Positions 15,674 to 55,402 are shown, counted from the stretch's first letter. The stretch: 64,000 bases of DNA from a virus (IMGVR_UViG_3300009183_004565); one strand, 5' to 3'. The notes: a model not told the origin generated them from the sequence alone. Numbers and translations are program-made.

Positions 15674-16405
15674 ATGCGAGATTACTTACTCGATATAGTA
15701 TCACACACTCATAGTTTGGGTGTTATTGATTTAGTTAAAATTACCGGTACTGATTCGTTGACTCTTGTTAACGCAGTTGGCGAAGAACGTGTGGCTATTG
15801 TGGAAGCACAATTTCATAATCCTGTTCCAGAGTTTATGGGTACCTTTGGTATGCCTAATCTGGGCAAACTTAATACCATTCTTAATATTCCTGAGTACAA
15901 GGAAGATGCCAAACTGTCTATTATCTCTAAAGACGTCGAAGGTGTCAAGACACCCGAAGGCATTCATTTTGAAAACAAAGAAGGAGATTTTAAAAATAGT
16001 TATCGATTCATGAGTGCCAATGTAGTAAACAACACTTTGCAAACAGTTAAGTTTAAAGGTGTTAAATGGGGAGTAGAAATTGAACCCAGCGTGACTTCGA
16101 TACAGAAACTTCGATTTCAAGCACAAGCCAATAGTGAAGAAACAAGTTTTATTGCCAAAGTTGAAAATGGTAATTTAGTATTCTATTTTGGTGATCATAG
16201 TAGTCATGCTGGTAACTTTGTGTTTGCACACGATGTAGCAGGAACATTGACCAAAGCATGGCATTGGCCAATTGCTGCTGTAATTAGTATTTTGGCATTG
16301 CCTGGTGATAAAATGATTAGATTCAGTGACGAAGGTGCAGCTCAAATTACGGTGGATTCTGGATTAGCCGTTTATAATTATATCTTGCCAGCACAAACCA
16401 AGTGA
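15674..16405 (+). CDS. probable DNA polymerase sliding clamp (gp45-like)
   Basis: 243 aa, alternating beta/alpha pattern ending YNYILPA, close to polB, own strong promoter and SD. Confidence 0.55.
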   Translation: MRDYLLDIVSHTHSLGVIDLVKITGTDSLTLVNAVGEERVAIVEAQFHNPVPEFMGTFGMPNLGKLNTILNIPEYKEDAKLSIISKDVEGVKTPEGIHFENKEGDFKNSYRFMSANVVNNTLQTVKFKGVKWGVEIEPSVTSIQKLRFQAQANSEETSFIAKVENGNLVFYFGDHSSHAGNFVFAHDVAGTLTKAWHWPIAAVISILALPGDKMIRFSDEGAAQITVDSGLAVYNYILPAQTK

Positions 16406-17046
16406 TAGATTTTATAGAATATTATAAAACAAAGGGTCATGTGTTCGGCGAATGTATGAGTAAAGCCGACACTGACCTTATGTACGTTAATATTCCTAAA
16501 AATGCCAGTTCATGGACCAAACCTAATTTAAAAGATTGGGGATGGGAGAATTACAACTATCATACTGATAATTTGTATCATAAACATGCTATAATAGTTT
16601 TGCGTAATCCAGTTGAACGTTGGTTAAGTGGCATTGCTGAATACATGTATCTGTACCATAGAAATTTAGATACAGCACATTTTTCAAATTGTTTTTTTGA
16701 TTTAGTATTTGATAGAATAGCATTTGACGATCACACCGAACAACAAGTATTATTCTTAGAAGGATTGAATCTTACTAACTGTACTTTCTTTTGGTGTGGA
16801 TCTCAATATAGAGAACTATTCAGTCATTTTTTAAATAATCGCGGAATGAGTAATAGATATTTCAATTACGATTATCAACATGTGACACAAGATGATCCTA
16901 TCAGAAGTCAATTCAAACAAACTTTTAAACAGGTACTAGATAAAAATTCTAAATACACTACGAATTTGGATAATTTTTTTTCTAAAGACTACAAACTAAT
17001 TAGATCTATTAATTTTTATGACAATCATTCAATCTTTTCAAATTAG
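16402..17046 (+). CDS. sulfotransferase family 2-like protein
   Basis: YVNIPKNASSW (5'-PSB-like) and LRNPVERWLSG (3'-PB-like). Confidence 0.65.
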   Translation: MIDFIEYYKTKGHVFGECMSKADTDLMYVNIPKNASSWTKPNLKDWGWENYNYHTDNLYHKHAIIVLRNPVERWLSGIAEYMYLYHRNLDTAHFSNCFFDLVFDRIAFDDHTEQQVLFLEGLNLTNCTFFWCGSQYRELFSHFLNNRGMSNRYFNYDYQHVTQDDPIRSQFKQTFKQVLDKNSKYTTNLDNFFSKDYKLIRSINFYDNHSIFSN

Positions 17047-17668
17047 AGGACTAATTGACCCAACAGAAAAATTTATATTCCTGGATGTATCAAAAAATGC
17101 CTCTACAAAGATTCTAAATACTCTGCGTAATGCCGAATGGACCAATTTGCCTGTTATGGAACGAAAAGAAAAAAATAATTTTCTTAACGACAAAATACTT
17201 TTTTCTGTACTAAGGGAACCATATGAGAGATGGGTAAGCGGATTTACAACATATGCTAAGTTGCCAGGAGCCAGGGGAACTCTTAATCTCTCGTTGTATA
17301 GATTATTAAACTCAGATCATTGGTACATTACTTTACAATCAATATTTGACTTTAGTGATAATTTTGAATTTGATATTCATACTCAATTACAATGCAATTG
17401 TTTTGACAGTTATAATGATACAAATACAGATATTAACTTTTTTCTACTTAACGAAAATGTTTGGTCCAATTTGCAAAATTGGTGCGATACTGTTAATTTA
17501 GAAATATTTTTTAACGATCGTTATGTAAATCAAACAGCCAAATCAAATTTAATATATAATCGAATAGTATCGTTTCTAGATACAAATCCTCGTTATAAAG
17601 AAAAATTAATGACTTGGTTACAACCTGATTACGATTTTTTTAACTCAGTGAAATTTGTTGCCCAATGA
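17018..17668 (+). CDS. sulfotransferase family 2-like protein
   Basis: FLDVSKNASTKI and LREPYERWVSG. Confidence 0.65.
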   Translation: MTIIQSFQIRGLIDPTEKFIFLDVSKNASTKILNTLRNAEWTNLPVMERKEKNNFLNDKILFSVLREPYERWVSGFTTYAKLPGARGTLNLSLYRLLNSDHWYITLQSIFDFSDNFEFDIHTQLQCNCFDSYNDTNTDINFFLLNENVWSNLQNWCDTVNLEIFFNDRYVNQTAKSNLIYNRIVSFLDTNPRYKEKLMTWLQPDYDFFNSVKFVAQ

Positions 17669-18309
17669 AATTAATAAAATACTGGTACGCGGACTCTCTA
17701 ATAGATCCAGATCAAAAATTTTGGTATCTTCCAATATATAAAAATGCCAGCACTAAGATTACCTCATGTTTAAAAAGAAAGAATTGGGATACACTAATTC
17801 GCACCAATATAATCAACGAAGATAAGTTTGTTAATAAATCTGTGCAATTTGCAATACTTCGCGACCCATACGAGCGTTGGATCTCTACTTATGTTTCTTA
17901 TATTAAAAATCCTATATTTGATCAATCTTCTTTGAATTCTCTGTTAGCATCAAAAAATAAAGATGATTTTGTTGAATTGCTATTTAATCGTGCACCTATT
18001 CAAGAATTTGATATGTATACCAATTTACAATCTGTAGCACTTTTAGATCATCCAGACTTAAAAAAAATTAACTTTTTTTGGCTCAATGGTCAGACTGGAT
18101 ATCAATTAAATAAATGGCTTCAGTCTCATAATGAAATAACATCATTGAATAACAGTATAGAAAACGGGATTGATAAAAAAGACCCACTATACCGAGAAGT
18201 AATTTCTTTTTTATTTAATTACAAGAATCATAAAATTAAAAACAAAATAATGGATTATTTACAACCAGACTACGATTTTATAAGCGGAATTAATTTTTAT
18301 GCAAGATAA
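17665..18309 (+). CDS. sulfotransferase family 2-like protein
   Basis: YLPIYKNASTKI and LRDPYERWIS. Confidence 0.65.
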   Translation: MKLIKYWYADSLIDPDQKFWYLPIYKNASTKITSCLKRKNWDTLIRTNIINEDKFVNKSVQFAILRDPYERWISTYVSYIKNPIFDQSSLNSLLASKNKDDFVELLFNRAPIQEFDMYTNLQSVALLDHPDLKKINFFWLNGQTGYQLNKWLQSHNEITSLNNSIENGIDKKDPLYREVISFLFNYKNHKIKNKIMDYLQPDYDFISGINFYAR

Positions 18310-19846: not shown

Positions 19847-20053
19847 ATGTACAAAGCTAAAATTAAACAACTTGAAGAATCTCATCGTGTGTTAAACAAA
19901 CAGATAGACGACATGGAACGTAATCATCCTCATGTTGAAGTTGATCGACTTGCTGAAATGAAAAAGAAAAAACTACTTGTTAAAGACGAAATCAGCCGTC
20001 TTAATAAGTTACAATGGGATCACGATCATGAAACGGTACACGGCGATGAATAG
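19847..20053 (+). CDS. DUF465/YdcH-like small coiled-coil protein
   Basis: LEESHRVLNKQID...LKKKKLLVKDEI pattern. Confidence 0.7.
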   Translation: MYKAKIKQLEESHRVLNKQIDDMERNHPHVEVDRLAEMKKKKLLVKDEISRLNKLQWDHDHETVHGDE

Positions 20054-20555
20054 AAACGGACATAACAATGCAAGCCTTTTTGTAGGCACTGAAGTAGAAC
20101 ATACACCTGCATTTGATTTAAAGACACTATTTGTTGTTGATATACAATCTATAGAATTAATCGAAGCCGCATACCTTGCACATAAATGCGAACACATATA
20201 CTTTGGTGCTAATCAAAGTTTTGCACCCAACGGTACTGCTAATTATTTTACTTTATGGGAAGAAATGATTACCCATTTTCTTAAGAAAGATCGTTTGTGT
20301 ACGTTGGATTTTGATGTATCCCATGTTGAATATGTATTGGAATATGGGTTCACCGAATATCATAATTTTATCCCAATGATTTCGGTTAAATTGCCCTATA
20401 TACAACAATTAGGATATAATGCTATAATTAAGCTCGACGATAAAGATTTTAATGCAACCAATCCTGGTGTATGGTGTCATAGTGTACACAAGTTACAAAA
20501 TCGTCGAGTGTTCACTGACTGGTCTAAATACACCAAAGACGAGATTATTAAATGA
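20046..20555 (+). CDS. hypothetical protein in the dpd cluster
   Basis: In-frame ATG 20046 overlapping the upstream gene end; FVGTEVEHTP, HIYFGANQSF, NPGVWCH, FTDW motifs. Confidence 0.65.
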   Translation: MNRNGHNNASLFVGTEVEHTPAFDLKTLFVVDIQSIELIEAAYLAHKCEHIYFGANQSFAPNGTANYFTLWEEMITHFLKKDRLCTLDFDVSHVEYVLEYGFTEYHNFIPMISVKLPYIQQLGYNAIIKLDDKDFNATNPGVWCHSVHKLQNRRVFTDWSKYTKDEIIK

Positions 20556-20980
20556 ATCAAGAACAAAGACAAACAGCAGATAGAATTATAGAACGTGCCG
20601 AAAGACAAATTTGGGTAACTTTTAGGCGCGAAGGTATCCATAAATACCCAGCAGCATTGGAGGAACCACAACTTGCGGATGTATCTTTTCTTGGCTATCC
20701 TCATCGCCATATCTTTCATTTCCGGGTGTCAATTGATGTGTTCCACAATGACCGGGACATCGAATTCATCCAATTCAAACGCTGGCTCGAAGGGCTGTAT
20801 AGTGCTAGTACACTCATTTTAGATTATAAAAGTTGCGAAATGATTGCTGATGACTTATATGTCCAAATTGCTAGTAAATTTCCCGGACGTAATGTTATAA
20901 TCAACGTGAGTGAAGACGGCGAAAATGGCTGTACTATCACTTACAATACACACCAACCTTATCAATCAATGAAAATTTAA
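20552..20980 (+). CDS. dpdL: QueD-paralogue T-fold protein, DpdL-like (putative CDG decarboxylase)
   Basis: EGIHKYP, LGYPHRHIFHF (LxxxHRHxF), DRDIEF, SCEMIA, VSEDGENG; adjacent to dpdA, with a separate canonical queD present. Confidence 0.65.
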   Translation: MNQEQRQTADRIIERAERQIWVTFRREGIHKYPAALEEPQLADVSFLGYPHRHIFHFRVSIDVFHNDRDIEFIQFKRWLEGLYSASTLILDYKSCEMIADDLYVQIASKFPGRNVIINVSEDGENGCTITYNTHQPYQSMKI

Positions 20981-20981
20981 T

Positions 20982-21356
20982 ATGGTTAAAGCTCCTCCAT
21001 GTATAGTATTAGGGTGCGGAAGATCTTCTTCTTACATTAATAGAAACCAAGATGGCACAAAAAAATATCGAAATACCTGTAGCAAACATCATAAAACGAA
21101 TTTAAACATGTCTAAAAAAGATTATTGCGAAAATATTGATGGTCGCCTTGGATTTAAATGTACCACTACTATCTTAGGTCCGTATCAATTACAAGTAGAT
21201 CACGTTGACGGAGATCGTTACAATAACGATCCAAAAAATCTTCAGACTTTGTGTGCTTGTTGTCACGCTCATAAAACGCATAAAGAAAAAAATCATCTTA
21301 GACGTTACAATAAAAAAATACAAACTACATTTAATTCAATTTTCAACTTTCAATAA
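20982..21356 (+). mobile_element. free-standing HNH homing endonuclease
   Basis: LQVDHVDGDRYNNDPKNLQTLCACCHAHKT HNH motif plus Zn-binding Cys. Confidence 0.85.
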
Positions 21357-21373: not shown

Positions 21374-22297
21374 ATGCCCCGAGTAAAAAAGTCTGCTGCA
21401 CTAGATGCCGAGCACGAAAAACTCATTGCGGTTTTAAAGTTTACACCACGTACCTATAAAATTTCATTGTGGGGATATGGTGGCGAATCTGTTATGGGTA
21501 CCGTACCTCGCGAAATCTACGATTACTTTAAACAGCGTAGACTTGATGTTAGTGGCTTTGCATGGGACAGCGACTACGCCGAAGAAAACAATATTCCCGA
21601 AGCGATGTGGCCATTCTCTCCTGGTTCATGGTACGAGTGTGATGATATAGCACATGTCAATGGTGTTGTATTAGATAGTGGCACTGTACACATTGAAGAT
21701 GAAAACGGTGACGAAATTCTCCAGTGTGGGATTGATGCTTTCCAAGACGAAGACTGTCCTGAATTAGATTACACAGACGAAACCTTTATTGACGATAAGC
21801 CGCCAGGCACTATAGTATTCATTGGCAACAGTAACGAAAAAGGTACGTTCTTTGAAGGCAGTATTGATCTTAGTGCCCCGTTTGATATCAACAAACTAAC
21901 TTTCAAAATTGAAGACGTAGACGGCAGTGAAGTTGTCTGCGGAATAGAATACGACGGCGAGTCGATTGATAACTATGGTGGCGATACCACTGGCAAGAGT
22001 TCAGAATTTGGATTCTATGTTGCAGGATCAATGAAGAATGGTAAGTGGGAACGTTATCGTAACGAAGATGATTGCACTTACGAAATGACTGCATGGTTTC
22101 CAAAAAACACCAAACCTGTGCGCGAAGGTGTTTATGAAATTGATGCAGGTAATAAAGAAAAATGGCCAAACTTTAGTCCAACTACAGCACGATGGACAGG
22201 CACACGATGGCTCAGTGTCTGGGCAGATGACACTCCCGAAACACCAGAAGTAAAAATAAAACAATGGCGTGGCATTGCCTACGATCCAAACAACTAA
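21374..22297 (+). CDS. acidic hypothetical protein
   Basis: 307-aa ORF with AAGGAG SD. Confidence 0.65.
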   Translation: MPRVKKSAALDAEHEKLIAVLKFTPRTYKISLWGYGGESVMGTVPREIYDYFKQRRLDVSGFAWDSDYAEENNIPEAMWPFSPGSWYECDDIAHVNGVVLDSGTVHIEDENGDEILQCGIDAFQDEDCPELDYTDETFIDDKPPGTIVFIGNSNEKGTFFEGSIDLSAPFDINKLTFKIEDVDGSEVVCGIEYDGESIDNYGGDTTGKSSEFGFYVAGSMKNGKWERYRNEDDCTYEMTAWFPKNTKPVREGVYEIDAGNKEKWPNFSPTTARWTGTRWLSVWADDTPETPEVKIKQWRGIAYDPNN

Positions 22298-22319: not shown

Positions 22320-22538
22320 ATGGCCGCAGCATGGCTCAAGAAGTATCTAAAGATGAAACCCGAAGTCAATCAAATCTTTGAAGACCTCGAGAAATACAAA
22401 GAGTTTTGTGTAACATACGGTTACATCTACGACGAGCGTCACTTGTACAACGAAAAAACACCTTGGGGCGAGTTCGAACGTGTACAACGTGGCAAATGGC
22501 CCAAGATGAATTGGTATGCCAAGAAGGAACGTACCTAA
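22320..22538 (+). CDS. hypothetical protein
   Basis: 72-aa ORF with AGGAGA SD. Confidence 0.65.
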   Translation: MAAAWLKKYLKMKPEVNQIFEDLEKYKEFCVTYGYIYDERHLYNEKTPWGEFERVQRGKWPKMNWYAKKERT

Positions 22539-22542
22539 TTAA

Positions 22543-23088
22543 ATGAACGTTTTAACTTACGATCATGTACTCCCAACTTGGTTAGAGGAGTCTGGAGAAA
22601 ATCAGTTCTATAGATTTCCTTTAGAATATAATCATCGCACAAAAGATGAAAATCCTCCATTTTTTGGTAAGTGTCTATACAACAAAAAAACAGGAGTATA
22701 TGTTCAATCTCCTTATTTTGTAGATGCTTTGTGTGATTGTATTAGGTATGACCTTGTGAATAAAATTGACCCAAGTGCAACATTCAATGAATTTCAAAGA
22801 GTGATTGTAAACGGGCAGATAGGTGGTATGTCTCCTGGTAGACATCCTGACTATGATGATCGTAATATGTGGACTGCTGTTTATTTCCTGTTAGGAAATT
22901 CAGGAGACCTAGTATTTTATCTTGATAACACTACTAAGAAGATCAAGTTTAGAAAACATAGATTGGTAGTGTTTAATAGTCGTATAGAACACGAAGCACT
23001 AGCACCCAATGAAGGTGATTGGAGAATGAGCATTGGTATCAATTGGTATATGGATACCAAATTTAATGAAATTGTAAAAGGAAAATAA
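22543..23088 (+). CDS. 2OG-Fe(II) oxygenase
   Basis: HPD...TAVYFL...GDLVF...LVVFNSRIEHEA...RMSIG facial triad and RxS. Confidence 0.8.
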   Translation: MNVLTYDHVLPTWLEESGENQFYRFPLEYNHRTKDENPPFFGKCLYNKKTGVYVQSPYFVDALCDCIRYDLVNKIDPSATFNEFQRVIVNGQIGGMSPGRHPDYDDRNMWTAVYFLLGNSGDLVFYLDNTTKKIKFRKHRLVVFNSRIEHEALAPNEGDWRMSIGINWYMDTKFNEIVKGK

Positions 23089-24281
23089 TGCGTAAATTAT
23101 GGTATATGGGTCTAGAACCCTATAAAGCACGATACACTCTACAGTTACAAGAGTGGAATCGTGCTGTATTTGACCGCCGTGGCATCAACTACGAAATAGT
23201 AGAAGGCGAAACGCTAAGTAACGACCAAGCCATTGTAACCGGACAAGTGCTAGATGCACATGGTCGTACATACTTTGGTATGAGCCAACTGATGAATCTT
23301 GTTCGCAAGATGAAAGCAGGAGAAGTTACCAATGAAGATGTTGTATACTTCGAAGACATGTTTCAACCTGGTATCGAGAGCTTGCCTTATATCATGCAGC
23401 AGTGCGATCCTGCTATGCGTCCCAAGATTGCTGTTCGTTGTCTTGCACAAAGCATTGACCCAGATGACTTTGTTCATGTCTGGGGCATGCAACAGTGGAT
23501 GGGGCATTATGAAAAGATGGTAGATAGTTTTGCCGATATCGTTCTTGCCAGTAACGAAGAAATGGTTATGCACATGAAGGTTGCAGGATGGCAGGCTCCT
23601 GTGTATAATATTAGTGGACTGGCATTTGGCAAAGAGGAAGTACGTGGTCGTGTGGCCGGTGCACTAAAGCCATTCCATGGTCGTAAGTATCGTGTGGGAT
23701 TTGCTGCCCGATGGGATCAAGAGAAGCAACCAGACTTTTACATGGATCTAATAGAAGAATATCACCGTCGTGCCAGTTTTGTGTTTAATGATTGGCCCAA
23801 TGTTGAGTTCTGCGTATTCAGTGGCAGTAAACTAAAAAGCAATAACGACAGTTACATGGCTCGTACTCGACGTATGCAGGCTGAAGGTAAACTTGTCGTT
23901 CATGAGGACTTGGAAAAAAATGATTATTATAATTTACTCAATGATACTCGTGTGTTATTCAATTGCGCTTTACAAGACTGGGTTAGTAACACTGTCAGCG
24001 AAGCCGACACTCTGGGATGTAATGTGTTATATCCCGCATATCGTAGTTTTCCTGAGTCTTTTGCTAACGATCATGAAAGACTTTACATTCCTTGGAGTAT
24101 AGATGACGCAATTACTAAACTTAATAAGCTATTGGAGCATCCTCATCCCGGTATGGGCACCATTAGTGATTGGACTGGGGGTACCATTGATCGCATTGTG
24201 GACATTCTAGAAGGCAAGGGCGAACAGTGGCAGCGCATGAGTACCGACTATCGTAAACATACACACGAGCACAAGTATTAA
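23088..24281 (+). CDS. GT-B (GT4-like) glycosyltransferase
   Basis: VGFAARWDQEKQP, VLFNCALQDWVSNTVSEADTLGCNVLYP C-terminal GT1/GT4 pattern. Confidence 0.75.
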   Translation: MRKLWYMGLEPYKARYTLQLQEWNRAVFDRRGINYEIVEGETLSNDQAIVTGQVLDAHGRTYFGMSQLMNLVRKMKAGEVTNEDVVYFEDMFQPGIESLPYIMQQCDPAMRPKIAVRCLAQSIDPDDFVHVWGMQQWMGHYEKMVDSFADIVLASNEEMVMHMKVAGWQAPVYNISGLAFGKEEVRGRVAGALKPFHGRKYRVGFAARWDQEKQPDFYMDLIEEYHRRASFVFNDWPNVEFCVFSGSKLKSNNDSYMARTRRMQAEGKLVVHEDLEKNDYYNLLNDTRVLFNCALQDWVSNTVSEADTLGCNVLYPAYRSFPESFANDHERLYIPWSIDDAITKLNKLLEHPHPGMGTISDWTGGTIDRIVDILEGKGEQWQRMSTDYRKHTHEHKY

Positions 24282-25255
24282 TGAAAATAGTTATCACAGG
24301 AGGATGTGGCTACATTGGTAGTCACATCGCACGAGCACTAAAACAACACAATGCAGATAATTGTGTATACATTATTGACCGTGTGCGTAGAGATCATACA
24401 CTTCAAGATGTAGACGGCTACCTACACGAAGATTATGCCAGCAAGAACAGTTTGCTATGGATTACGGAACTAGAACCTGATGTTATTGTGCATTGTGCAG
24501 GCAGCAGTCTTGTTGGCGAGAGTATGACCAATCCTGCTGAGTATTATGAAAACAATATTGCAAAGACTATTACTCTATTGTCGCATGTAAAAGATCTACG
24601 TAAGAAACCTTTGATACTGTTTAGTAGTAGTGCCAGTGTGTACGGCAATCCTGCGACTGTTCCGGTATATGAGTCAGATCCCAAACTGCCTATCAGTCCA
24701 TATGGTGTTAGCAAACATGTTACTGAACGACTATTAAGTGACTATCATGCAGCATACGGTGTTCCTAGTGTGTGCTTTAGATATTTTAATGCAGCCGGAG
24801 CAGAACCTTTTGCACATGACCTTGGGCAAGCACCTGGTGCCAGTCATATCGTTGCTAGAATACTAGAAGCCAAACTTGCTGGGAAATCGTTTACGCTTAA
24901 TGGTGCAGATTATAACACACCGGATCGTACTTGTATTCGTGATTACATACACGTATGGGATTTGGCTGACGCACACATACGTGCCATTGAGTGGATGAAC
25001 AATGAGAATGAGAAACGTGCTGCAGTGATGAATCTTGGTACTCAACATGGTATTAGCAATCAAGAGATTATTGATTATGTAACAGTAAACTACGGTGGCA
25101 TTGATGTTGTAGTTGGGCCAAGGCGCCCCGGAGATCCAGATCGACTTGTTGCTGATGCAAGTGTAGCATATGCTTTATTAAAATGGAAACCTGTCTACTC
25201 AACGATCAATCAAATTGTTGATAGTGCATACAAATGGTATACTCGTGAGCTTTGA
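24281..25255 (+). CDS. galE: UDP-glucose 4-epimerase
   Basis: ITGGCGYIGSH, FSSSASVYG, PYGVSK (YxxxK), FRYFNAAGA, RDYIHVWDLADAH. Confidence 0.9.
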   Translation: MKIVITGGCGYIGSHIARALKQHNADNCVYIIDRVRRDHTLQDVDGYLHEDYASKNSLLWITELEPDVIVHCAGSSLVGESMTNPAEYYENNIAKTITLLSHVKDLRKKPLILFSSSASVYGNPATVPVYESDPKLPISPYGVSKHVTERLLSDYHAAYGVPSVCFRYFNAAGAEPFAHDLGQAPGASHIVARILEAKLAGKSFTLNGADYNTPDRTCIRDYIHVWDLADAHIRAIEWMNNENEKRAAVMNLGTQHGISNQEIIDYVTVNYGGIDVVVGPRRPGDPDRLVADASVAYALLKWKPVYSTINQIVDSAYKWYTREL

Positions 25256-25829
25256 TCGCATATTGGAGTTTGAACAAGCACTGGCCGAATACACAGGTGC
25301 GCCATACGCAATCATGACTGATTGTTGTACTCATGCTATTGAGTTGTGTCTAAGATTTCAAAAGCCCACTCATTGTGCATTTACTGCTTTTACCTATCTG
25401 TCTGTGCCAATGACCATGCACAAACTAGGAATTGAGTACAGATTGATTCCCGAAGTATGGACTGGCGAATATCAATTCCACGGAACCACAATTTGGGATA
25501 GCGCACGTAGGCTAGAGCGAGGAATGTATCGAGCAGGACAGATGCAATGTCTCAGCTTCGGTTACACTAAGCCTTTACAAATAGGCCGTGGTGGTGCTAT
25601 ACTGTTAGACAATGAACAAGCATACAACACTATAACGGAACAACGATATGATGGGCGCAAATTATCAGTTACACCCTGGCAGGAACAAAAAACCTTCATG
25701 GTGGGCTATCATTATAGACCGACTCCGGAAGAAGCTGCGATTGGATTAATAAAATTGCGCGATGTTAATGAACTGCCTAAATATCACGAATATCCTGATC
25801 TAAGAGATATTAAAATTATTGGAGAATAA
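25245..25829 (+). CDS. short DegT/DnrJ-like PLP-dependent enzyme
   Basis: FEQALAEYTGAPYAIMTDCCTHAIELC, WDSA, CLSFGYTKPLQIGRGGAIL; much shorter than a full DegT; GTG 25245 is the likely start. Confidence 0.7.
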   Translation: MSFDRILEFEQALAEYTGAPYAIMTDCCTHAIELCLRFQKPTHCAFTAFTYLSVPMTMHKLGIEYRLIPEVWTGEYQFHGTTIWDSARRLERGMYRAGQMQCLSFGYTKPLQIGRGGAILLDNEQAYNTITEQRYDGRKLSVTPWQEQKTFMVGYHYRPTPEEAAIGLIKLRDVNELPKYHEYPDLRDIKIIGE

Positions 25830-25830
25830 G

Positions 25831-26661
25831 TTGACCACAAAAGAATTTACACCAAATCCAGTATTAAACGAAACACCTGATAAAGAATTTGTTCCTATGG
25901 AACTGGAATCTATGTATGTGGCTTTACCACAAAAGGTATATGTGAAAGCTGGCGAAGCTGCTGCCGCTAAACAATCATATTTGTCGGATGCTATTCGTGC
26001 CAGGATGAAACGTGACGGTAAAAGATACTGGGCAGGAGATAACATCAGTGACTATCTAGCGGACAGTGACAAAGAACATCTAATCAGCGAAGCCGCAGAA
26101 GCATTTGAACTAGTACTAGACCGTTTGCTGATTGATCGCGAAAATGATCCTAACAGTCGAGGTACAGCACGACGCCTGGCTAAAATGTACTTCAACGAAA
26201 TAATGGCAGGTAGATATGAAACGGCACCAGACGCAACGGCTTTTCCAAATGATTCGGAGGAAAGATATGAAGGTATGCTTGTGGTTAGAAGTGAACTTCG
26301 CAGTATGTGTAGCCATCATCACCAGCCCGTTACTGGTGTTGCTTATATTGGTATTATCGCCGCTAATAAACTTATCGGTCTTAGTAAGTATACTCGTATT
26401 GCTCAGTGGTGCGCTCGTCGTGGCACACTACAAGAAGAGCTGTGTAATGATATCGCTAGAGAGATTATGAAGGCCACTGATGCTAAAGATGTAGCAGTAT
26501 ATGTACAAGCGATACATGGATGTTGCGAAAATCGCGGCATTATGGCACATAGTTCGTTAACTCAAACTACAGTATTAAAGGGAACATTCAAAGATGATCC
26601 TCATACTAAGAAGGAATTCTTCGACAACATTAAACTACAACAAGAATTTGCACCAAGGTAA
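25831..26661 (+). CDS. folE: GTP cyclohydrolase I
   Basis: SMCSHHHQP, GLSKYTR, LQEEL, HGCCENRG; TTG 25831 follows a GGAG SD. Confidence 0.95.
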   Translation: MTTKEFTPNPVLNETPDKEFVPMELESMYVALPQKVYVKAGEAAAAKQSYLSDAIRARMKRDGKRYWAGDNISDYLADSDKEHLISEAAEAFELVLDRLLIDRENDPNSRGTARRLAKMYFNEIMAGRYETAPDATAFPNDSEERYEGMLVVRSELRSMCSHHHQPVTGVAYIGIIAANKLIGLSKYTRIAQWCARRGTLQEELCNDIAREIMKATDAKDVAVYVQAIHGCCENRGIMAHSSLTQTTVLKGTFKDDPHTKKEFFDNIKLQQEFAPR

Positions 26662-26677
26662 TTTGCTCCAACCGCCT

Positions 26678-26683
26678 TAAATA
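26678..26683 (+). promoter_or_regulatory. T4-like late promoter core TAAATA
   Basis: Intergenic, followed by AAGGAG SD and ATG 26702. Confidence 0.45.
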
Positions 26684-26701
26684 TAAGGTAAAGGAGCAAA
26701 A

Positions 26702-27031
26702 ATGTCAGACGAACAAGAAGAGTTTAAAAAAAAATTACAAGCCCTAAAGCCCAAAAAAAAGAAGTTAGCCGTTCCTGAAGGTTTCTTAGACGATGCTAAA
26801 AGTTACGAAGGCAAATTAGAAGCTGTTAAAATAATCTCAGAGCGAGAAAAAGATCGAGTTATTTTGATATTTAAAAAAATGATTGCACAAGGTAAAGAAG
26901 ATGCAATACGTATTGAACGAGAAAAACTAGAAGCTAAACGAGCAGCTGAAGCTAAAGAAGCATTAGAAAGAGCAGCAAAGATAGCAAAAGAAAAGTTAGC
27001 CAAAAAATCATTATTTGGTAAAAAGAAGTAA
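26702..27031 (+). CDS. K/E/A-rich coiled-coil hypothetical protein
   Basis: 109-aa ORF with strong SD. Confidence 0.6.
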   Translation: MSDEQEEFKKKLQALKPKKKKLAVPEGFLDDAKSYEGKLEAVKIISEREKDRVILIFKKMIAQGKEDAIRIEREKLEAKRAAEAKEALERAAKIAKEKLAKKSLFGKKK

Positions 27032-27049
27032 ATTCAATTAATCAAGGAG

Positions 27050-27244
27050 ATGTATATGAAACTCAACGACAAGCTAGTAAAATGCAACGATCATTTTACT
27101 GTCTATATGTACGACAATGGCTATATGGTTGAAATTGGTGGACGTGACGACAACGACGAATGGGTTACTGCCAAAGTTCTTTGCACAGATTTTAAAGAAC
27201 TAACCAATCTTATCGAAGAAGCTACCATAATGGAACGTGACTAA
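27050..27244 (+). CDS. hypothetical protein
   Basis: 64-aa ORF with AAGGAG SD. Confidence 0.6.
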   Translation: MYMKLNDKLVKCNDHFTVYMYDNGYMVEIGGRDDNDEWVTAKVLCTDFKELTNLIEEATIMERD

Positions 27245-27777
27245 TGAAAAAGTTAATTATCTCGGATGCTGAATTTAAAAAATTAGTTCACAAGCTCTGC
27301 AGAGATATTGCCAATAGCGATTGGCGACCTGACTATGTTGTAGGTTTAACTCGTGGTGGACTTACTGCTGCTGCCATGATCAGTCATTATTTTGATGTTC
27401 CTATGGAAACATTGAAGCCAAGATCGGAAAGCAATTGCTGGATGGCTGAAGATGCATTTGGATATATTCCAGACGGTCCGCTACGTGAAGGCATAGATAA
27501 ACGCAGTGACGCTACATTTAAAAAGAAAATTCTTGTTGTCGATGACATTAACGATACCGGTTCTACACTTGAATGGATACGTGAAGATTGGCAATCAAGT
27601 TGTTTGCCCAACGACGAATCTTGGAAATATGTATGGAACAAGAACGTGCGTTTTGCTGTATTAATCAATAACGAATCCAGTAACTATGAGCATGTGGATT
27701 ATTCAGGTCGTAACATTAATAAACTTGATGATCCGTGTTGGGTAGTGTTCCCCTGGGAAAATTGGTGGGAGGCATGA
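27244..27777 (+). CDS. type I purine phosphoribosyltransferase
   Basis: VVGLTRGG, ILVVDDINDTGSTL PRPP loop, WVVFPWE (xanthine-guanine PRT-like). Confidence 0.9.
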   Translation: MKKLIISDAEFKKLVHKLCRDIANSDWRPDYVVGLTRGGLTAAAMISHYFDVPMETLKPRSESNCWMAEDAFGYIPDGPLREGIDKRSDATFKKKILVVDDINDTGSTLEWIREDWQSSCLPNDESWKYVWNKNVRFAVLINNESSNYEHVDYSGRNINKLDDPCWVVFPWENWWEA

Positions 27778-28119: not shown

Positions 28120-28689
28120 ATGATCAATGTAGGAATATATCTAGAATCTAAGCCATTTAATGATAATTGGCCAAAAATTAAAATCTATCATAACAATAGT
28201 CTACTCGACGATGTAATTTGTCATCAGTCACTAGAGTTACATTATCAAATTAAACCTAGCGTTGATAACCTTCTCTCAATTGAGATGTACGGAAAAAGAT
28301 TCGGCGATGGCGGAATATATGATGTGGACAGTAACGGACAAGGACAAGAAATTCAAATTAAAGATATTACTTTTGATGATGTGTCAATTGATCACTTGTT
28401 GTCAAAAGTTGAATTTGAAACCCACTGGACTGAACACCAGCTTTCTTCACACAACGAAGAATTTAGATCTAAATATAATAGATATCAATCCAACGGTATG
28501 ATAGTCTTTAACGGAAGACTGAATTTTAATTTTTCAACTCCTATATATGATTTTTTAATTGATAAAAAGTATAAAGTTGATCATAACAAAGACATTGCTT
28601 ATTTTAGTAACAGCACGGAACTATTTAATTTTCATCTTGGATTAAGTAAATTAGAAGAAATTAAAAAAATTATTACAGAAAATGAATAA
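28120..28689 (+). CDS. hypothetical beta-rich protein; paralogue of 723..1199
   Basis: AT-rich ORF overlapping the B12 radical SAM start; shared C-terminal motif. Confidence 0.55.
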   Translation: MINVGIYLESKPFNDNWPKIKIYHNNSLLDDVICHQSLELHYQIKPSVDNLLSIEMYGKRFGDGGIYDVDSNGQGQEIQIKDITFDDVSIDHLLSKVEFETHWTEHQLSSHNEEFRSKYNRYQSNGMIVFNGRLNFNFSTPIYDFLIDKKYKVDHNKDIAYFSNSTELFNFHLGLSKLEEIKKIITENE

Positions 28690-30187
28690 AAAAGTTTTAG
28701 TATTATCAGTTCCGCGACTCGAACCACATCGCCCCCCAATTAGTGCTACTCTTGTTGCTACTGTATGCAAAAATCACGGTTGTGATGTTAAGTTACGAGA
28801 TCTAAATATTGAATTTTATCATTATTGTAAATTAAATAATATAGAATATCAAAAATTTGATCCAATTTGGGATAGATATGTAGAACCATCAAATTTAGAA
28901 CTATCACATATACACACTCATATAGATAATTTTATTGCAACTGAAGATTTGCATTCTTACGATATCATTATGATCAGTGTATTTGGCTCAAGTAGCCATT
29001 ACTTCACTGAAATGTTATTAAAAAAAATTGCAGTAGATAGATCTTATAAAATTTTATTAGGTGGTTCGGGAGCATTTGTGTCTATTATGAATCGTGGGCA
29101 TAATTCTTTTGTTGTGGAGATGCAAAAACAAAATCTAATAGACGATTTTATAAAAGGCGAGTGCGAAGAATCCTTAAAATATTATTTAGACGGTAAAGAA
29201 TATCCAGGAATTAATAACTATGATCCTGTGCAGATTGATGATTTAGATTCATTACCGTTAATTGATTATAGTTTTGTTGACTTAGATGCTTATGAATATC
29301 TCACTGAAACTAAAGATGTTTATGTAGAAGGTAGTAGGGGATGTGTACGTAAATGTACTTATTGTGATGTTCAGAAATTTTGGCCAAAATATCGTTTCAG
29401 AAGTGGTCAGCATATTGCACACGAGCTTATTAACAATTACGAAAAATTTGGCATTAAAAAATTTTACTTTACTGATAGCTTAGTTAACGGAAGTTTAAAA
29501 TCATTCAATCAGATGTGCGATATTCTTGCTAATTACCCATATAGCAAAGAAATTAGCTGGGGAGGACAATTTATTTTCAGAAATGAAAGAACTGTGCCAC
29601 CGGAGCATTTTGAAATGATCGCTAAGGCCGGCGGTACTAATACTTTTTACGTAGGAATAGAAACTGGCAGTGATCAAGTTAGAAAACAAATGGGTAAAAA
29701 TTTTACCAACGAAGATATTAGTTATCAACTTGAAGAATTTAAAAAGAATAAATTGAAATGTACTTTTTTAATGTTTCCTGGCTATATTACAGAAACTGAA
29801 AAGGATCATCAAGACACATTAGATATGTTTTTAAGATGGCAAAAGTATGTAGCCAGTGGAACTATCAATGGTTTAGAATTAGGTAGTCCTTTGATAGTTC
29901 TCGAAGGAACCCCACTAGCTAGTATGATTGATGAGTATCAAATTGCATTTTTAGAGAGTGATAGAATTACTACTGGTAATTTCTGGGTATCAAAATTAAA
30001 TCCAAGTTTTGATTTTGAGCAGCGAGCTATTAGGCAAATCAGACTATACGAAGAAGCTGCAAAATATAAATGGCCTATTTGGAGATTTGAATCAAGAGCT
30101 GAAGAATTAAAACAAACTCTAATTAGATTTTATGAAATAAAAGAAAAAAATCCAACATATAAGATAACACCAATTAAAATTAATTAA
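28682..30187 (+). CDS. cobalamin-binding radical SAM enzyme (class B methyltransferase-like)
   Basis: N-terminal B12-binding pattern (HRPP, DLN, ILLGG), EGSRGCVRKCTYCD, FTDSLVNG, VGIETGS, FPGYITET. Confidence 0.85.
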   Translation: MNKKVLVLSVPRLEPHRPPISATLVATVCKNHGCDVKLRDLNIEFYHYCKLNNIEYQKFDPIWDRYVEPSNLELSHIHTHIDNFIATEDLHSYDIIMISVFGSSSHYFTEMLLKKIAVDRSYKILLGGSGAFVSIMNRGHNSFVVEMQKQNLIDDFIKGECEESLKYYLDGKEYPGINNYDPVQIDDLDSLPLIDYSFVDLDAYEYLTETKDVYVEGSRGCVRKCTYCDVQKFWPKYRFRSGQHIAHELINNYEKFGIKKFYFTDSLVNGSLKSFNQMCDILANYPYSKEISWGGQFIFRNERTVPPEHFEMIAKAGGTNTFYVGIETGSDQVRKQMGKNFTNEDISYQLEEFKKNKLKCTFLMFPGYITETEKDHQDTLDMFLRWQKYVASGTINGLELGSPLIVLEGTPLASMIDEYQIAFLESDRITTGNFWVSKLNPSFDFEQRAIRQIRLYEEAAKYKWPIWRFESRAEELKQTLIRFYEIKEKNPTYKITPIKIN

Positions 30188-30280: not shown

Positions 30281-30778
30281 ATGCAACCTGTTGTATATAA
30301 ATTTACTAGTACCAAAGAGTATCACGACGCCTTTCCTTGCGCTTACCGGCAATGGCGTGCCGATAGTCATTGTAATCTAATACACGGCTATTCATTTAGT
30401 ATGAAGTTCTACTTTGGTACTAACGACTTAGACGTTCGTAATTGGGCAGCTGACTACGGTGGACTTAAAGAACTTAAAAAGATTCTTGAAGATCAATTTG
30501 ACCACACATTAATTGTAGCCGAGGACGATCCCGAACTTGCAACATTTAAGTTGTTACAAGAACGGAACATGGCCAAGATTGTCATACTACCACGTTTAGG
30601 CTGTGAAGGCCTAGCTGACTCGCTGTACAAATATGTGAATGGTGTTTATATTCCTGATATGTGGGGACCTAGTGAAGCTGAACGCTTATGGTGTTATCGT
30701 GTAGAGGTTAGAGAGACACAAGCAAACATGGCGTACCGAGAAGGTCACCGTGAATGGAACGAGGATCTGTTTGCGTAA
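30281..30778 (+). CDS. queD: 6-carboxy-5,6,7,8-tetrahydropterin synthase
   Basis: CAYRQ, SHCNLIHGY, DYGGLKELK, FDHTL, VEVRET; AGGAG SD. Confidence 0.9.
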   Translation: MQPVVYKFTSTKEYHDAFPCAYRQWRADSHCNLIHGYSFSMKFYFGTNDLDVRNWAADYGGLKELKKILEDQFDHTLIVAEDDPELATFKLLQERNMAKIVILPRLGCEGLADSLYKYVNGVYIPDMWGPSEAERLWCYRVEVRETQANMAYREGHREWNEDLFA

Positions 30779-31592
30779 GTTCGTTATACGATGTGCCCGG
30801 AATCCGGATGGTCAAGAATTCTTAGACTTAGAATTCAATATTCGTCCGGGCTCTTACTCCGGCAAATGGATAGACTGCATACGTAGTGTGGAACACTTAC
30901 CTCCACATCAATACGGATTTCCCAAATGGCTAGAACACGATGCCGGTGTATACGAGCAACGTATTGCAGATGCATTAAACAACAACACAGATATACAAGA
31001 GTTTTTATTAGACTCTAACATTGATAGAACCGTGATCAATCAAGACTTGGTCAATGCTGTCCATAGATATATTGAGCACAATCATCAACATGCCGCCGAA
31101 CATCTTGTGTTACACAATGACATACATTACTTAGAAAGTATTTGGGAAGGTGCAACTGATGTTGTGTTCAAGAAGTTACAGTGGGTACCACCAGGGCTAA
31201 TAATTGACATGACCTTGGATGACTATAAAGAATTTACTACAGAACCATGCACTAACTTTATACAAGACGATTTTAGTCATGTAGGACGTAGTCCACATAA
31301 CAGTTACCTATATCAAGATGACTCCAGTCTGTACACTAGTTGTGTTATACAACATAAAGTTGGTTCAGGTGCTAAATGGTTTATTCCTGATGATAGTCAT
31401 ATCTTTAAGGACGAACGTGGATTCAGATCGTGGGTCAGTGAACATCAAGCGTTTTTTAAAAAGCAATGGGCGATAGAAACTAATAACGATCCTAGGCTTT
31501 GTTTTGGCCGTATTATTATTGCCGAAGGTGTGGAAGATTATAGTCGGATTGATAGGACATTTGACTTCGTAGTAAAAGCTTTTATTATCTAA
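30750..31592 (+). CDS. hypothetical protein, paralogue 2 of the radical-SAM-adjacent His/Glu family
   Basis: VHRYIE, NDIHYLE, SHVGRSP...YLYQD, FRSWV, DPRLCFG; sits between queD and queE. Confidence 0.6.
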   Translation: MNGTRICLRKFVIRCARNPDGQEFLDLEFNIRPGSYSGKWIDCIRSVEHLPPHQYGFPKWLEHDAGVYEQRIADALNNNTDIQEFLLDSNIDRTVINQDLVNAVHRYIEHNHQHAAEHLVLHNDIHYLESIWEGATDVVFKKLQWVPPGLIIDMTLDDYKEFTTEPCTNFIQDDFSHVGRSPHNSYLYQDDSSLYTSCVIQHKVGSGAKWFIPDDSHIFKDERGFRSWVSEHQAFFKKQWAIETNNDPRLCFGRIIIAEGVEDYSRIDRTFDFVVKAFII

Positions 31593-31613: not shown

Positions 31614-32456
31614 ATGTCAAAAATTAAAATTGCAGAGCTGTTTTACAGCATACAAGGAGAAGGTCGTTACATGGGTGTGCCTAGTGTGTTCTTGCGAACA
31701 TTTGGGTGTAACTTTAAATGTGCCGGCTTTGGTATGCCTCGAGGACAATTAAGTACAGAGGCAGATTTGGTTGATCCGGAAAAATATAAATTCTACGATA
31801 AACTACCTTTAGTTAGCACAGGTTGCGATAGTTACGCTAGTTGGGATCCAAGATTTAAAGATCTTAGTCCCATGCTCGAAAGCGATGCTATTGCGGATCG
31901 TATCATGGAGATATTGCCTTTTAACGAGTGGCGAGATGAACACTTGGTTATTACAGGTGGAGAACCTTTACTAGGGTGGCAACGTGCTTATCCGGACTTG
32001 TTAAATCATCCTCGGATGGCAGGACTTAAAGAAATTACCTTTGAAACTAATGGTACTCAAAAGCTAACTCCAGAATTTAAACATTATTTAGGAGAGTGGA
32101 CTGCTGAAAACTGGGATAGAGAAGTTACATTTAGTGTAAGTGCTAAACTAAGTTGTAGCGGCGAAAGTAGAGAAGAAGCACTACAACCAGAAGTTGTTTG
32201 CGAATATCAATCTGTAGGAAATACCTATCTTAAATTTGTTGTAGCAACAGACGACGATGTAGAAGAAGCATTATGGACCGTACAAGTTTATAGACAAGCA
32301 GGATTTACAGGGCATGTATATCTGATGCCCACAGGTGGTGTTGAGAGTGTGTATGCATTAAACAATCGTCGTGTAGCAGAACTTGCTATGAAACACGGAT
32401 TAAGATACAGCGATAGATTACAAGTACCGCTATTTAAAAATGAATGGGGTACTTAA
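31614..32456 (+). CDS. queE: 7-carboxy-7-deazaguanine synthase (radical SAM)
   Basis: ELFYSIQGEG, FLRTFGCNFKC, CDS, ITGGEP, FETNGT, VSAKL. Confidence 0.93.
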   Translation: MSKIKIAELFYSIQGEGRYMGVPSVFLRTFGCNFKCAGFGMPRGQLSTEADLVDPEKYKFYDKLPLVSTGCDSYASWDPRFKDLSPMLESDAIADRIMEILPFNEWRDEHLVITGGEPLLGWQRAYPDLLNHPRMAGLKEITFETNGTQKLTPEFKHYLGEWTAENWDREVTFSVSAKLSCSGESREEALQPEVVCEYQSVGNTYLKFVVATDDDVEEALWTVQVYRQAGFTGHVYLMPTGGVESVYALNNRRVAELAMKHGLRYSDRLQVPLFKNEWGT

Positions 32457-46555: not shown

Positions 46556-47473
46556 ATGGAACAACAATACTTAACAGCATTGCGTGAAGTTTTAGAAACT
46601 GGAACACGCAGAGATGATCGCACGGGTGTGGGTACCATATCTAAATTTGGTATGCAGCAACGATACGATCTGTCCCAGGGATTTCCTGCTGTCACTACCA
46701 AGAAATTAGCGTGGCGGGCTTGTGTAGGTGAACTACTTTGGTTCATCGAAGGCAGTGGTAGCGAGCGCAGGCTTGCAGAACTCACACACGGCATTGCTGA
46801 CGGTAAGGCGACTATATGGACTCCCAATGCACTTGCTCCTTATTGGAAACCCCGGGCCAAATTTGATGGTGACTTGGGTCGGGTATACGGAGTACAATGG
46901 CGTCATTGGCGTACAATTAAACCGCGTGAACCAAATGCTACATTCAAAGACGGTTTTGGATCTACTTATCGTAGGATAGGTAGTGAAGTAGAATTACGAG
47001 AAGTAGACCAATTACGCCAATTGATTGACGGTATTCGCAAAGACCCATATGGTCGTAGACATATATTAACAGCATGGAATCCTGGTGAGCTAGATCAAAT
47101 GGCTCTACCACCTTGTCATTGCTTTGCGCAGTTTTATGTCTCCGACGGTCGGTTGTCGTGCCAAATGTACCAGCGTTCTTGTGATATGTTTTTAGGTGTA
47201 CCTTTTAACATAGCAAGCTATAGTTTACTAACACATATGATTGCTCATGTGTGCGGTCTTCAGGTAGGCGAGTTCGTTCACGTACTCGGCGACGCACATA
47301 TATATTTGGATCATATAGATCAGGTAAACGAACAATTGAAGCGTGAACCATTACCTGCTCCACGACTACTGCTAAGTCCGGGTATACAAGAAATCACAGA
47401 GTTTACCATGGGTGATATTGTGCTACATGACTATCAATCGCATGGTGCTATTAAAGCCCAAATGGCGGTATAA
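46556..47473 (+). CDS. thyA: thymidylate synthase (classical)
   Basis: DRTGVGT, ELLWFI, YGVQWR, MALPPCH, YQRSCD, PFNIASY, GDAHIY. Confidence 0.97.
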   Translation: MEQQYLTALREVLETGTRRDDRTGVGTISKFGMQQRYDLSQGFPAVTTKKLAWRACVGELLWFIEGSGSERRLAELTHGIADGKATIWTPNALAPYWKPRAKFDGDLGRVYGVQWRHWRTIKPREPNATFKDGFGSTYRRIGSEVELREVDQLRQLIDGIRKDPYGRRHILTAWNPGELDQMALPPCHCFAQFYVSDGRLSCQMYQRSCDMFLGVPFNIASYSLLTHMIAHVCGLQVGEFVHVLGDAHIYLDHIDQVNEQLKREPLPAPRLLLSPGIQEITEFTMGDIVLHDYQSHGAIKAQMAV

Positions 47474-54733: not shown

Positions 54734-55037
54734 CGCATTCAAGACAAGGGCTATGAGTAACAAATAAAGTAGCTTGATCCCCGGAATCGTTTGACTTTGC
54801 CAACTTTGCAATAGCATTTGATTCGGCGTGTAGTACTTCTGCTTTTGTTTTTAATGATCCATCTTCGGATACATCCTCACAAACATTGCTCCATCCGGCT
54901 GGCATTCCATTATATCCAATGGAAATAATTCTATCATCCTTGACTACGATAGCACCAACTTTTAATCTACGTGCGTGACTTAATTCAGCAAATGTGTGTG
55001 CTGTCTGCATATAAGCACGTTTAAACTTTTCCTTCAC
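54615..55037 (-). CDS. dCMP deaminase
   Basis: VGAIVV, GYNG, HAESNA, SPCLEC. Confidence 0.93.
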   Translation of the reverse strand: MKEKFKRAYMQTAHTFAELSHARRLKVGAIVVKDDRIISIGYNGMPAGWSNVCEDVSEDGSLKTKAEVLHAESNAIAKLAKSNDSGDQATLFVTHSPCLECAKLIYQSGIQQVYYQEKYRDDLGLEFLQASGVDVEQLPV

Positions 55038-55402
55038 TCTACACCCATTTGCTTTCTAATTGCAGTTGCCGATATTGCCTGTGTGGTATCATCAAACGTT
55101 TCTTGTTCTATTAGGTATCCTACATCTCTACCATACGTAATATTTACAATATTAGGAACCACTAAAATTTCATACATTCCTTTGTAAATAGGATCAAGAT
55201 CTGCACGAATATAATTCTTTACTTCTTCTAGACCAAAAGGGTTACTATAGTTCCATCCTTGACAATCTCGTATCATAATGCAGACCTGCCCGGTCTTAGC
55301 AATAGCACGTTCAAATAATGCACGATGACCTGCATGCCAAGGTTGCCACCGTCCTAGCATTTGTACTGTAGGCTTTTGCCAATCAAAAGTTTTTTCTGTC
55401 AT
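55034..55402 (-). CDS. minimal HxGH nucleotidyltransferase
   Basis: GRWQPWHAGH, IMIRD, NPF, YGRDVGY, ISATAIR; coupled to APS kinase. Confidence 0.85.
   Translation of the reverse strand: MTEKTFDWQKPTVQMLGRWQPWHAGHRALFERAIAKTGQVCIMIRDCQGWNYSNPFGLEEVKNYIRADLDPIYKGMYEILVVPNIVNITYGRDVGYLIEQETFDDTTQAISATAIRKQMGVE

Follow-up and report, generated by a model that had tools for sequence, protein, structure and literature searches.

The 7-deazaguanine bases known from DNA carry small substituents, namely a cyano, amide, aminomethyl or carboxyl group, methyl/formyl derivatives, or hydrogen. The last-mentioned case, plain 7-deazaguanine (dDG), is realized in the DNA of phiST, a phage of Cellulophaga (Cui, Hutinet et al., NAR 2023, PMC10516641). 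In the same study, the signature LxxxHRHxF, as opposed to CxxxHGH in QueD, was defined for the QueD paralogue DpdL; dDG was not rebuilt from DpdL and DpdA of phage ACP17 alone, and missing enzymes were suspected. For the jumbo phage PA5oct, only a modified G is known, from restriction patterns that show resistance at G-containing sites (PMC12191111). A sugar on a related free base is found in the huimycin cluster of Kutzneria albida, where the glycosyltransferase HuiG transfers N-acetylglucosamine onto the 2-amino group of a 7-deazaguanine-derived free base (PMC7439116).

The subject of the present analysis is a 64,000-nucleotide stretch of viral DNA (IMGVR_UViG_3300009183_004565), the whole of which is referred to as the window, and in particular a predicted glycosyltransferase (GT) encoded there amid the genes of a 7-deazaguanine pathway. 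Judged from its occurrence among phages, the GT belongs to DpdL cassettes as a dedicated component and is not a passenger, and it very probably works in the deazaguanine system. The overall explanation proposed, according to which the GT would hexosylate a 7-deazaguanine-derived acceptor and virion DNA would carry the product, is held with belief and doubt in equal parts.

The window is part of a 144-kb IMG/VR record of about 41% completeness. It derives from a lineage of freshwater (lake) jumbo phages, the complete members of which comprise 350-375 kb; the family-B DNA polymerase (PolB) of the window is closest to that of Sinorhizobium phage Phosso (50%), followed by that of Atu_ph07 (46%). 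Megablast of the region against cultured phages gave no match, and a scan for promoters and terminators revealed no difference from shuffled sequence. The proteins of the window were mapped onto a set of 80 close relatives sharing 77-87% GT identity, and 92 further, distant GT loci were retrieved by a profile scan of IMG/VR, amounting to 172 related loci. Unless another denominator is given, frequencies refer to those loci that reach 4 kb or more beyond the GT in either direction, that is, to 32 close relatives and 53 distant PolA/PolB phages.

The deazaguanine genes and their linkage to the glycosyltransferase

By its gene content (Table 1), the window carries a QueC-less, DpdL-type 7-deazaguanine DNA-modification system. 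The motif of its DpdL matches the published signature, and the protein is 57% identical to that of ACP17 and 35% identical to gp040 of phiST. The DpdA-like protein, which shares 34% identity with EST35_0316 of PA5oct, was recognized through its motif and by profile comparison; a Pfam TGT search of the record and a phmmer search of the PDB with this protein gave no match. Its language-model neighbours are TGT (0.93) and DpdA PF23859 (0.88), and in hhalign its DSGGFQ/SFDCASP segments pair with DSGAHS/SvDStSW of the 318-amino acid cassette DpdA (probability 56%, E 1e-4). This 318-amino acid form, with the motifs IDSGAHS and SvDStSW, is present in 78 of 97 loci, and a DpdA is encoded in all 32 close relatives. 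The search for QueC in the incomplete (41%) 144-kb record yielded only a PP-loop match of 12.5 bits, and QueC was found in none of 33 GT-bearing phage records, comprising three complete relatives and 30 distant ones, 21 of the latter being at least 90% complete.

The GT is closely associated with these genes. DpdL lies beside it in all close relatives (32/32) and in 49 of the 53 distant phages, and FolE, QueD and QueE are encoded in 46, 46 and 47 of the distant loci, respectively. Altogether, the GT accompanies deazaguanine genes in well over 100 distinct phage contigs, and its adjacency to DpdL is kept in podo-like, T4-like and jumbo phages despite rearranged gene order. It adjoins DpdL in BUCT-ZZ01, ACP17, Phosso, the PA5oct group, BCSR5 and four Logan contigs, and in BUDD and X1 both genes are present at a distance of about 1.5 kb. 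In the unrelated cyanophage BUCT-ZZ01, the order is QueE-PRTase-x-QueD-FolE-x-x-DpdL-GT (PRTase, phosphoribosyltransferase), with identities to the window of 63.5% for the GT, 48% for QueE and 37% for DpdL. In the close relatives it is PolB, clamp, DpdA, (u192), DpdL, u72, GT, (u307), GalE, (short DegT), FolE, (PRTase), QueD, QueE, the less constant genes being set in brackets. Distant GT representatives of 27-38% identity to the window GT, obtained from a library of 1.8 billion proteins, are located in FolE/QueD/QueE/DpdL clusters of small PolA phages. Among 185,579 prokaryote species genomes, the family occurs in two, in each case within this same kind of cassette and on a short contig of a metagenome-assembled genome.

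The GT family comprises at least 8000 clusters at 90% identity, and its neighbours include the replication genes for PolA, PolB and the clamp. In a sublineage, GT proteins are 77-80% identical where PolB is 60-64% identical; by this comparison, the GT is under unusually strong constraint and is more conserved than the DNA polymerase.

A previous sequence-only reading of positions 22543-27777 had named an oxygenase, the GT, GalE, a short DegT enzyme, FolE and a PRTase, all of which were recovered where it had placed them, on the plus strand. Its tie between a sugar transferase and the deazaguanine pathway was borne out, since phages of widely differing kinds have the GT at the core of their QueD-QueE-FolE-DpdL-GT-DpdA cassette. 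The gene directly upstream of the block is the 307-amino acid open reading frame (ORF) u307, which is not DpdL-like; the DpdL gene is separated from the block by an HNH endonuclease gene and two ORFs, and queD lies 2.5 kb past the end of the block. The proposed run of overlap-coupled genes stands for the pairs oxygenase/GT and GT/GalE, both with one-base TAATG overlaps, but it is not one conserved unit, since the oxygenase is absent from all related loci examined. The overlap of GalE and short DegT would be 41 nt if TTG at 25215 is the start; short DegT and FolE overlap by 11 nt only with TTG at 25819, and a start at the first ATG (25897) would place 67 nt between them.

Further observations concern the composition of the cassettes. 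A Vut_1 (PF02592) membrane protein (E 1e-42) is encoded in some of the GT-DpdL cassettes, namely in L159 (5710-6408) and in eight other distant loci; this family is that of YhhQ, which imports preQ0/preQ1. Nine other loci encode a ParB_N-like protein with some likeness to DpdB. Two IMG/VR contigs (L172 and L183) each contain two copies of the GT family within one deazaguanine cluster, and in BUCT-ZZ01 another ORF with weak similarity to the GT (447 amino acids, E 2e-6) lies upstream of the DpdA candidate. In the GT-less Rhizobium phage RHph_I1_18 (L092, 12408-13232), the gene directly after DpdL is annotated as macro-domain (Appr-1-p processing), and in phiST this place is taken by MazG together with a small ATPase of the AAA_18 type. 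It seems that DpdL is followed by one or another enzyme acting on nucleotides or sugar phosphates.

Fold and predicted donor and acceptor of the glycosyltransferase

The GT of the window scores below the curated cut-off of PF13524 (21.3 versus 25 bits). Out of 63 diverse family members, 41 match PF00534 (Glycos_transf_1) at E <= 0.01, and the family profile matches WlaC, WbaZ and MshA with E values from 4e-4 to 9e-3; a phmmer search of the PDB with the GT gave no match. An AlphaFold2 model of the protein has a predicted local distance difference test score (pLDDT) of 94.7. Foldseek with this model returned at least 500 matches at E <= 0.001, and the best 50 are all GT-B enzymes. The best are retaining GT4 enzymes, namely BshA, MshA, PimA, glycogen synthase and SenB, the acceptors of which are mostly small; a cyanobacterial pterin glucosyltransferase (Synechococcus PCC 7942) is found at rank 25. 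With BshA, MshA and PimA (E 5e-13 to 4e-11, TM-scores of 0.6-0.7), the phage GT has in common a donor-site pattern of Arg/Lys and acidic-x7-Glu. It differs from them in that sequence identity is only 9-13%, the N-terminal motif PLExYxERYTxQL is peculiar to it, and its family is almost confined to phages. Within that family, R208 and K213 are invariant, a D297..E305 motif is conserved, and Q296-D297 and S300 in QDWVSNTVSEA are near-invariant, which corresponds to the donor sites of active GT4 enzymes. In the N-terminal domain, conservation concerns mainly acidic or aromatic residues, and the median isoelectric point (pI) of the family is 5.7, which weakly favours a base-like acceptor. In a 655-amino acid GT fusion (P0159), the extra tail consists of low complexity only, and a viral scan with P0266 gave no match.

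In the pathway proposed, FolE, QueD and QueE would yield 7-carboxy-7-deazaguanine (CDG), as predicted from their families; DpdL would decarboxylate CDG to 7-deazaguanine, and the TGT-like DpdA would exchange guanine in phage DNA for 7-deazaguanine. The GT would transfer a hexose from UDP-hexose to a 7-deazaguanine-derived acceptor, which could be either the free base before its insertion by DpdA, comparable to the action of HuiG at N2, or dDG already in DNA. The HuiG precedent, the fold neighbours and an acceptor domain of acidic and aromatic character weakly favour the free base. Either acceptor would lead to virion DNA with glycosylated 7-deazaguanine. As to whether the sugar would indeed end up on virion DNA, the case is balanced at best and leans slightly towards no. 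In the jumbo lineage, GalE would supply or balance a donor of the UDP-Gal/UDP-GalNAc type (4-epimer), and the short DegT, in this lineage only, may convert the sugar to an amino sugar. We infer, tentatively, that virion DNA of DpdL-GT phages holds hexosylated 7-deazaguanine, perhaps with an amino or sulfated sugar in the jumbo lineage, as a layer against nucleases and glycosylases.

The two genes on the donor side differ in their spread. GalE contains the motifs SxnYxxxK and SSASVYG, and dehydratase models score far under their cut-offs. It is encoded in all close relatives (32/32), often 3 nt after the GT, and in 3 of the 53 distant cassettes; a role in donor supply would fit the jumbo lineage. 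The short DegT-type enzyme, predicted to use pyridoxal phosphate (PLP), covers 204 amino acids of a 360-position model, and the C-terminal domain is missing throughout its family. The PLP lysine is retained in SFGYTK, and the members, numbering 7456 clusters at 90% identity, have a uniform length of 192-204 amino acids. With 23 occurrences in the close relatives and none in the distant cassettes, the short DegT is, on these grounds, a real family restricted to the jumbo lineage. An initial suspicion, that a frameshift had left a pseudogene continuing in the ORF of FolE, was rejected, because all PLP motifs are in one frame and the length is constant across thousands of clusters.

Genes related to sulfur metabolism are encoded elsewhere in the window. 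Between the clamp and DpdA, there are one to three sulfotransferase-like paralogues (PF03567, carbohydrate sulfotransferase family; 16402-18309), as in many relatives. A gene resembling adenylyl sulfate (APS) kinase is fused to DUF2061 (39 bits, over the cut-off; 55034-56034) and lies beside a small cytidylyltransferase-like gene; it adjoins a dCMP/cytidine deaminase gene on the minus strand (PF00383, E 1.5e-23; 54615-55037), and a radical SAM gene is located at 56770-58038. The sulfotransferase-like and APS-kinase-like genes might stand for a sulfated sugar.

Several points weigh against a glycosylated 7-deazaguanine in virion DNA. The support for the function of the GT is genomic context throughout, and unsubstituted 7-deazaguanine offers no hydroxyl group for classical O-glycosylation. 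T4 DNA glucosyltransferases are not among the best 50 Foldseek matches, the GT is acidic, and its C-terminal tail THEHKY (...HESKY in relatives) is unlike the clamp-docking tail TTFDSLFSFE of PolB. Furthermore, the GT is absent from the whole genomes of phiST, RHph_I1_18 and Bakedbeans, all of which bear DpdL, that of RHph_I1_18 being 62% identical to DpdL of the window; since phiST has plain dDG with DpdL and without a GT, the GT is dispensable for dDG itself. Finally, the distant loci were ascertained via the GT, so that the frequency of DpdL given the GT was measured, and not that of the GT given DpdL.

One rival explanation leaves the GT in the pathway and places its product outside DNA. 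A pterin, as in the case of the cyanobacterial BH4 glucosyltransferase, the carboxylate of CDG, or N9 or N2 of free 7-deazaguanine (DG) might be glycosylated, and the product would then serve as a transient handle or for storage, or would act against the host as an antimetabolite. This is considered unlikely. It would agree with the fold matches to retaining GT4 enzymes with small acceptors, including the pterin glucosyltransferase, with the acidic and aromatic acceptor domain, and with HuiG, the product of which is a free glycosylated deazapurine; moreover, DpdL and QueD both have a T-fold that binds pterins or purines, and DpdL is a decarboxylase by proposal only. However, dozens of other GT4 enzymes are as close to the GT as the pterin glucosyltransferase, the GT travels with DpdA in the above-mentioned 78 of 97 loci next to the replication genes, and it was not found in bacterial secondary-metabolite clusters among the prokaryote species genomes searched.

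Still less probable is that the GT acts on a target unrelated to deazaguanine, be it a protein, a different base of DNA or the envelope of the host, and is merely co-inherited with the cassette in a replication and anti-defence region. GT4 and GalE are common phage auxiliary genes, the slot around the GT gathers unrelated cargo in the form of the oxygenase, the HNH endonuclease and u307, and phiST-type systems function without a GT. Co-inheritance is difficult to reconcile with an adjacency to DpdL that persists across phage types with rearranged order, and with a family that is essentially missing outside the cassette and never occurs together with QueC in the 33 records tested; in addition, no hydroxymethylase for a second base is linked. 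A hydroxymethyl-pyrimidine acceptor was considered separately and rejected, the only ThyA-like gene (46556-47473, 22 kb away) looking canonical (PF00303, 350 bits; PCH and PFN kept).

Hydroxylation of a DNA base by the 2-oxoglutarate (2OG) oxygenase and subsequent glycosylation of the hydroxyl, as in glucosyl-hydroxymethylcytosine and base J, would follow the oxygenase-then-GT logic of TET/JBP systems and draw on the one-base overlap of the two genes, but it is very improbable here and, as a general mechanism, close to refuted, since the enzyme matches the P4H-like PF13640 below threshold and not TET_JBP and is missing at each of the 172 related GT loci, among them the 32 close relatives with full flanks, so that the oxidation step of the sequence-only reading is not supported.

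Accessory genes of the window

Table 1. Predicted genes of the deazaguanine locus, listed by position in the window
Feature	Position	Strand	Assignment
DpdA-like DNA guanine transglycosylase, 515 amino acids	18299-19846	+	TGT motif GDSGGFQ
u192, conserved protein	20046-20555	+	homologue in ACP17 (ASD50402)
DpdL, QueD paralogue, proposed CDG decarboxylase	20552-20980	+	LGYPHRHIF; phrog_17812
HNH endonuclease, mobile insert	20982-21356	+	PF13392/PF01844; 3/80 relatives
u307, 307 amino acids, between HNH and u72	21374-22297		pI 4.4, charge -29
u72, small basic protein upstream of GT	22320-22538	+	pI 9.2
2OG-Fe(II) oxygenase-like	22543-23088	+	PF13640 E 7e-5, under curated cut-off; phrog_274
GT4-like GT-B glycosyltransferase	23088-24281	+	weak PF13524; family and fold evidence
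GalE, UDP-hexose 4-epimerase	24281-25255	+	TIGR01179, 288.1 bits (cut-off 262.3)
Short DegT-type PLP enzyme, 204 amino acids	25215-25829	+	PF01041, 67 bits (cut-off 19.8)
FolE, GTP cyclohydrolase I	25819-26661	+	PF01227 E 2e-40; likely start ATG 25897
Type I 6-oxopurine PRTase	27244-27777	+	PF00156
B12-binding radical SAM enzyme, PhpK-type methyltransferase-like	28682-30187	+	PF04055/PF02310, TIGR04479-like; 4/80 relatives
QueD, 6-carboxytetrahydropterin (CPH4) synthase	30281-30778	+	PF01242 E 4e-14; 50% identical to ACP17 QueD
280-amino acid ORF, between PRTase and QueE	30750-31592		2/80 relatives
QueE, CDG synthase	31614-32456	+	phrog_2076 E 1e-52

The PRTase is encoded in 15 of the 32 close relatives and in 4 of the 53 distant cassettes, and homologues reside inside the cassettes of BUCT-ZZ01 and PA5oct. 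Its nearest solved structures are 1vdm and 4z1o. Most likely, judged from its family, it salvages guanine released by DpdA, which would be recycled via GMP to GTP; as GTP is the substrate of FolE, the latter would thereby be fed one-for-one and the pathway would be balanced. Alternatively, the enzyme could convert DG or CDG with phosphoribosyl pyrophosphate into a deazapurine nucleotide for pre-replicative incorporation by the polymerase. TubE and ToyH, which would be the models for such a reaction, belong to the same enzyme class, and PRTase genes lie within the cassettes of four distant phages as well as in those of BUCT-ZZ01 and PA5oct. This route is nevertheless rather doubtful, given that a DpdA was found in every lineage examined, most cassettes are without a PRTase, and the nearest solved relatives are ordinary 6-oxopurine PRTases.

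Among cultured phages, the 2OG oxygenase has matches to cyanomyovirus hypothetical proteins only (24-34% identity). Its gene is situated in the gap between u72 and the GT, the length of which varies from 0 to 1485 nt among relatives. By this distribution, the oxygenase is a one-off cargo insert with no part in the system. The radical SAM enzyme at 28682-30187 and the 280-amino acid ORF, for which tblastn gave no match, are by their sporadic occurrence either variable cargo or lineage-specific tailoring.

The C-terminal tail of the HNH endonuclease, TTFNSIFNFQ, resembles the tail of the DNA polymerase (11991-14651), which is presumed to be a clamp-docking peptide; the homing endonuclease may therefore borrow the clamp. 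Some DpdA relatives terminate in ...PLFSFGG or ...EDLFG. Concerning the remaining small genes, u307 follows directly after the GT in 20 of the 80 relatives and has no family match, while u72 is lineage-specific (32/32 close relatives, 0/53 distant cassettes). The gene for u192 is present in 26 of the close relatives and 20 of the distant cassettes and often abuts the GT. For this protein, no usable match was obtained from the Atlas and a PDB profile search gave nothing significant; with its AlphaFold2 model (pLDDT 83), the best Foldseek match had E 0.05, and VIA-align reached Z values of at most 7.1 (generic alpha/beta). In Phosso, an ORF at the equivalent position is annotated as glycosylase; it was unmatched at E 0.01, and the label was not reproduced.

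Comparison with described systems

In the literature, nothing was found that links DpdA3 with a glycosyltransferase or describes glycosylated deazaguanine in DNA, the 2024 MMBR review not being covered, and the main text of Cui et al., considered without its supplementary tables, contains no word starting with "glycosyl"; the combination is thus undescribed in the sources covered, as the sequence-only reading had held. If the explanation proposed is correct, a sugar on a purine analogue would constitute a new chemical class, fixed in the QueC-less branch, and, for DNA of any kind, the first purine-type base to bear a sugar. On top of dDG, it would protect a second time, namely from those DNA glycosylases and modification-dependent nucleases that attack plain deazaguanines; this fits an arms race in which anti-dDG glycosylases and END nucleases, both described recently, are the opponents. 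The GT could also account for the failed rebuilding of dDG from ACP17 DpdL and DpdA, and its product could be the unexplained modified G of PA5oct, a jumbo phage of therapeutic interest. Given the size of the GT family, the modification may be present in a considerable fraction of freshwater jumbo phages, in which case sequencing and restriction-based methods would be affected, too.

The T-even DNA glucosyltransferases are phage GT-B enzymes by which the sugar of a UDP-sugar is placed, as a second layer, on an already non-canonical base, 5-hydroxymethylcytosine. They differ from the present case in that their acceptor is a hydroxymethyl pyrimidine made prior to replication, while the window has no linked hydroxymethylase and the closest folds of its GT are GT4 small-molecule enzymes. 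In the huimycin cluster, a glycosyltransferase is likewise encoded together with FolE, QueD and QueE homologues, a likeness by analogy; that cluster, however, belongs to bacterial secondary metabolism, includes QueC and an O-methyltransferase, lacks DpdA, and leads to a free molecule.

The phiST system shares with the window FolE, QueD and QueE without QueC, a DpdL with LxxxHRHxF and a TGT-like DpdA near replication genes (PMC10516641). It has neither GT nor GalE, DegT or PRTase, with MazG and the small ATPase being encoded instead, and its DpdA3 comprises about 259 amino acids versus 515 in the window. Summarizing, the core of the locus is the known phiST-type dDG system, and the GT, GalE, the short DegT and the PRTase are not in that description. 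The cultured phages ACP17 (Acidovorax), BUCT-ZZ01 (Synechococcus), Phosso (Sinorhizobium) and those of the PA5oct group (Pseudomonas) are without the short DegT and the 2OG oxygenase, and an epimerase-like fragment is confined to PA5oct. They resemble the window in having the GT beside DpdL, QueE near and, except in PA5oct, FolE near; a PRTase is also present in BUCT-ZZ01 and PA5oct, and in ACP17 the GT lies between the DpdL and DpdA genes.

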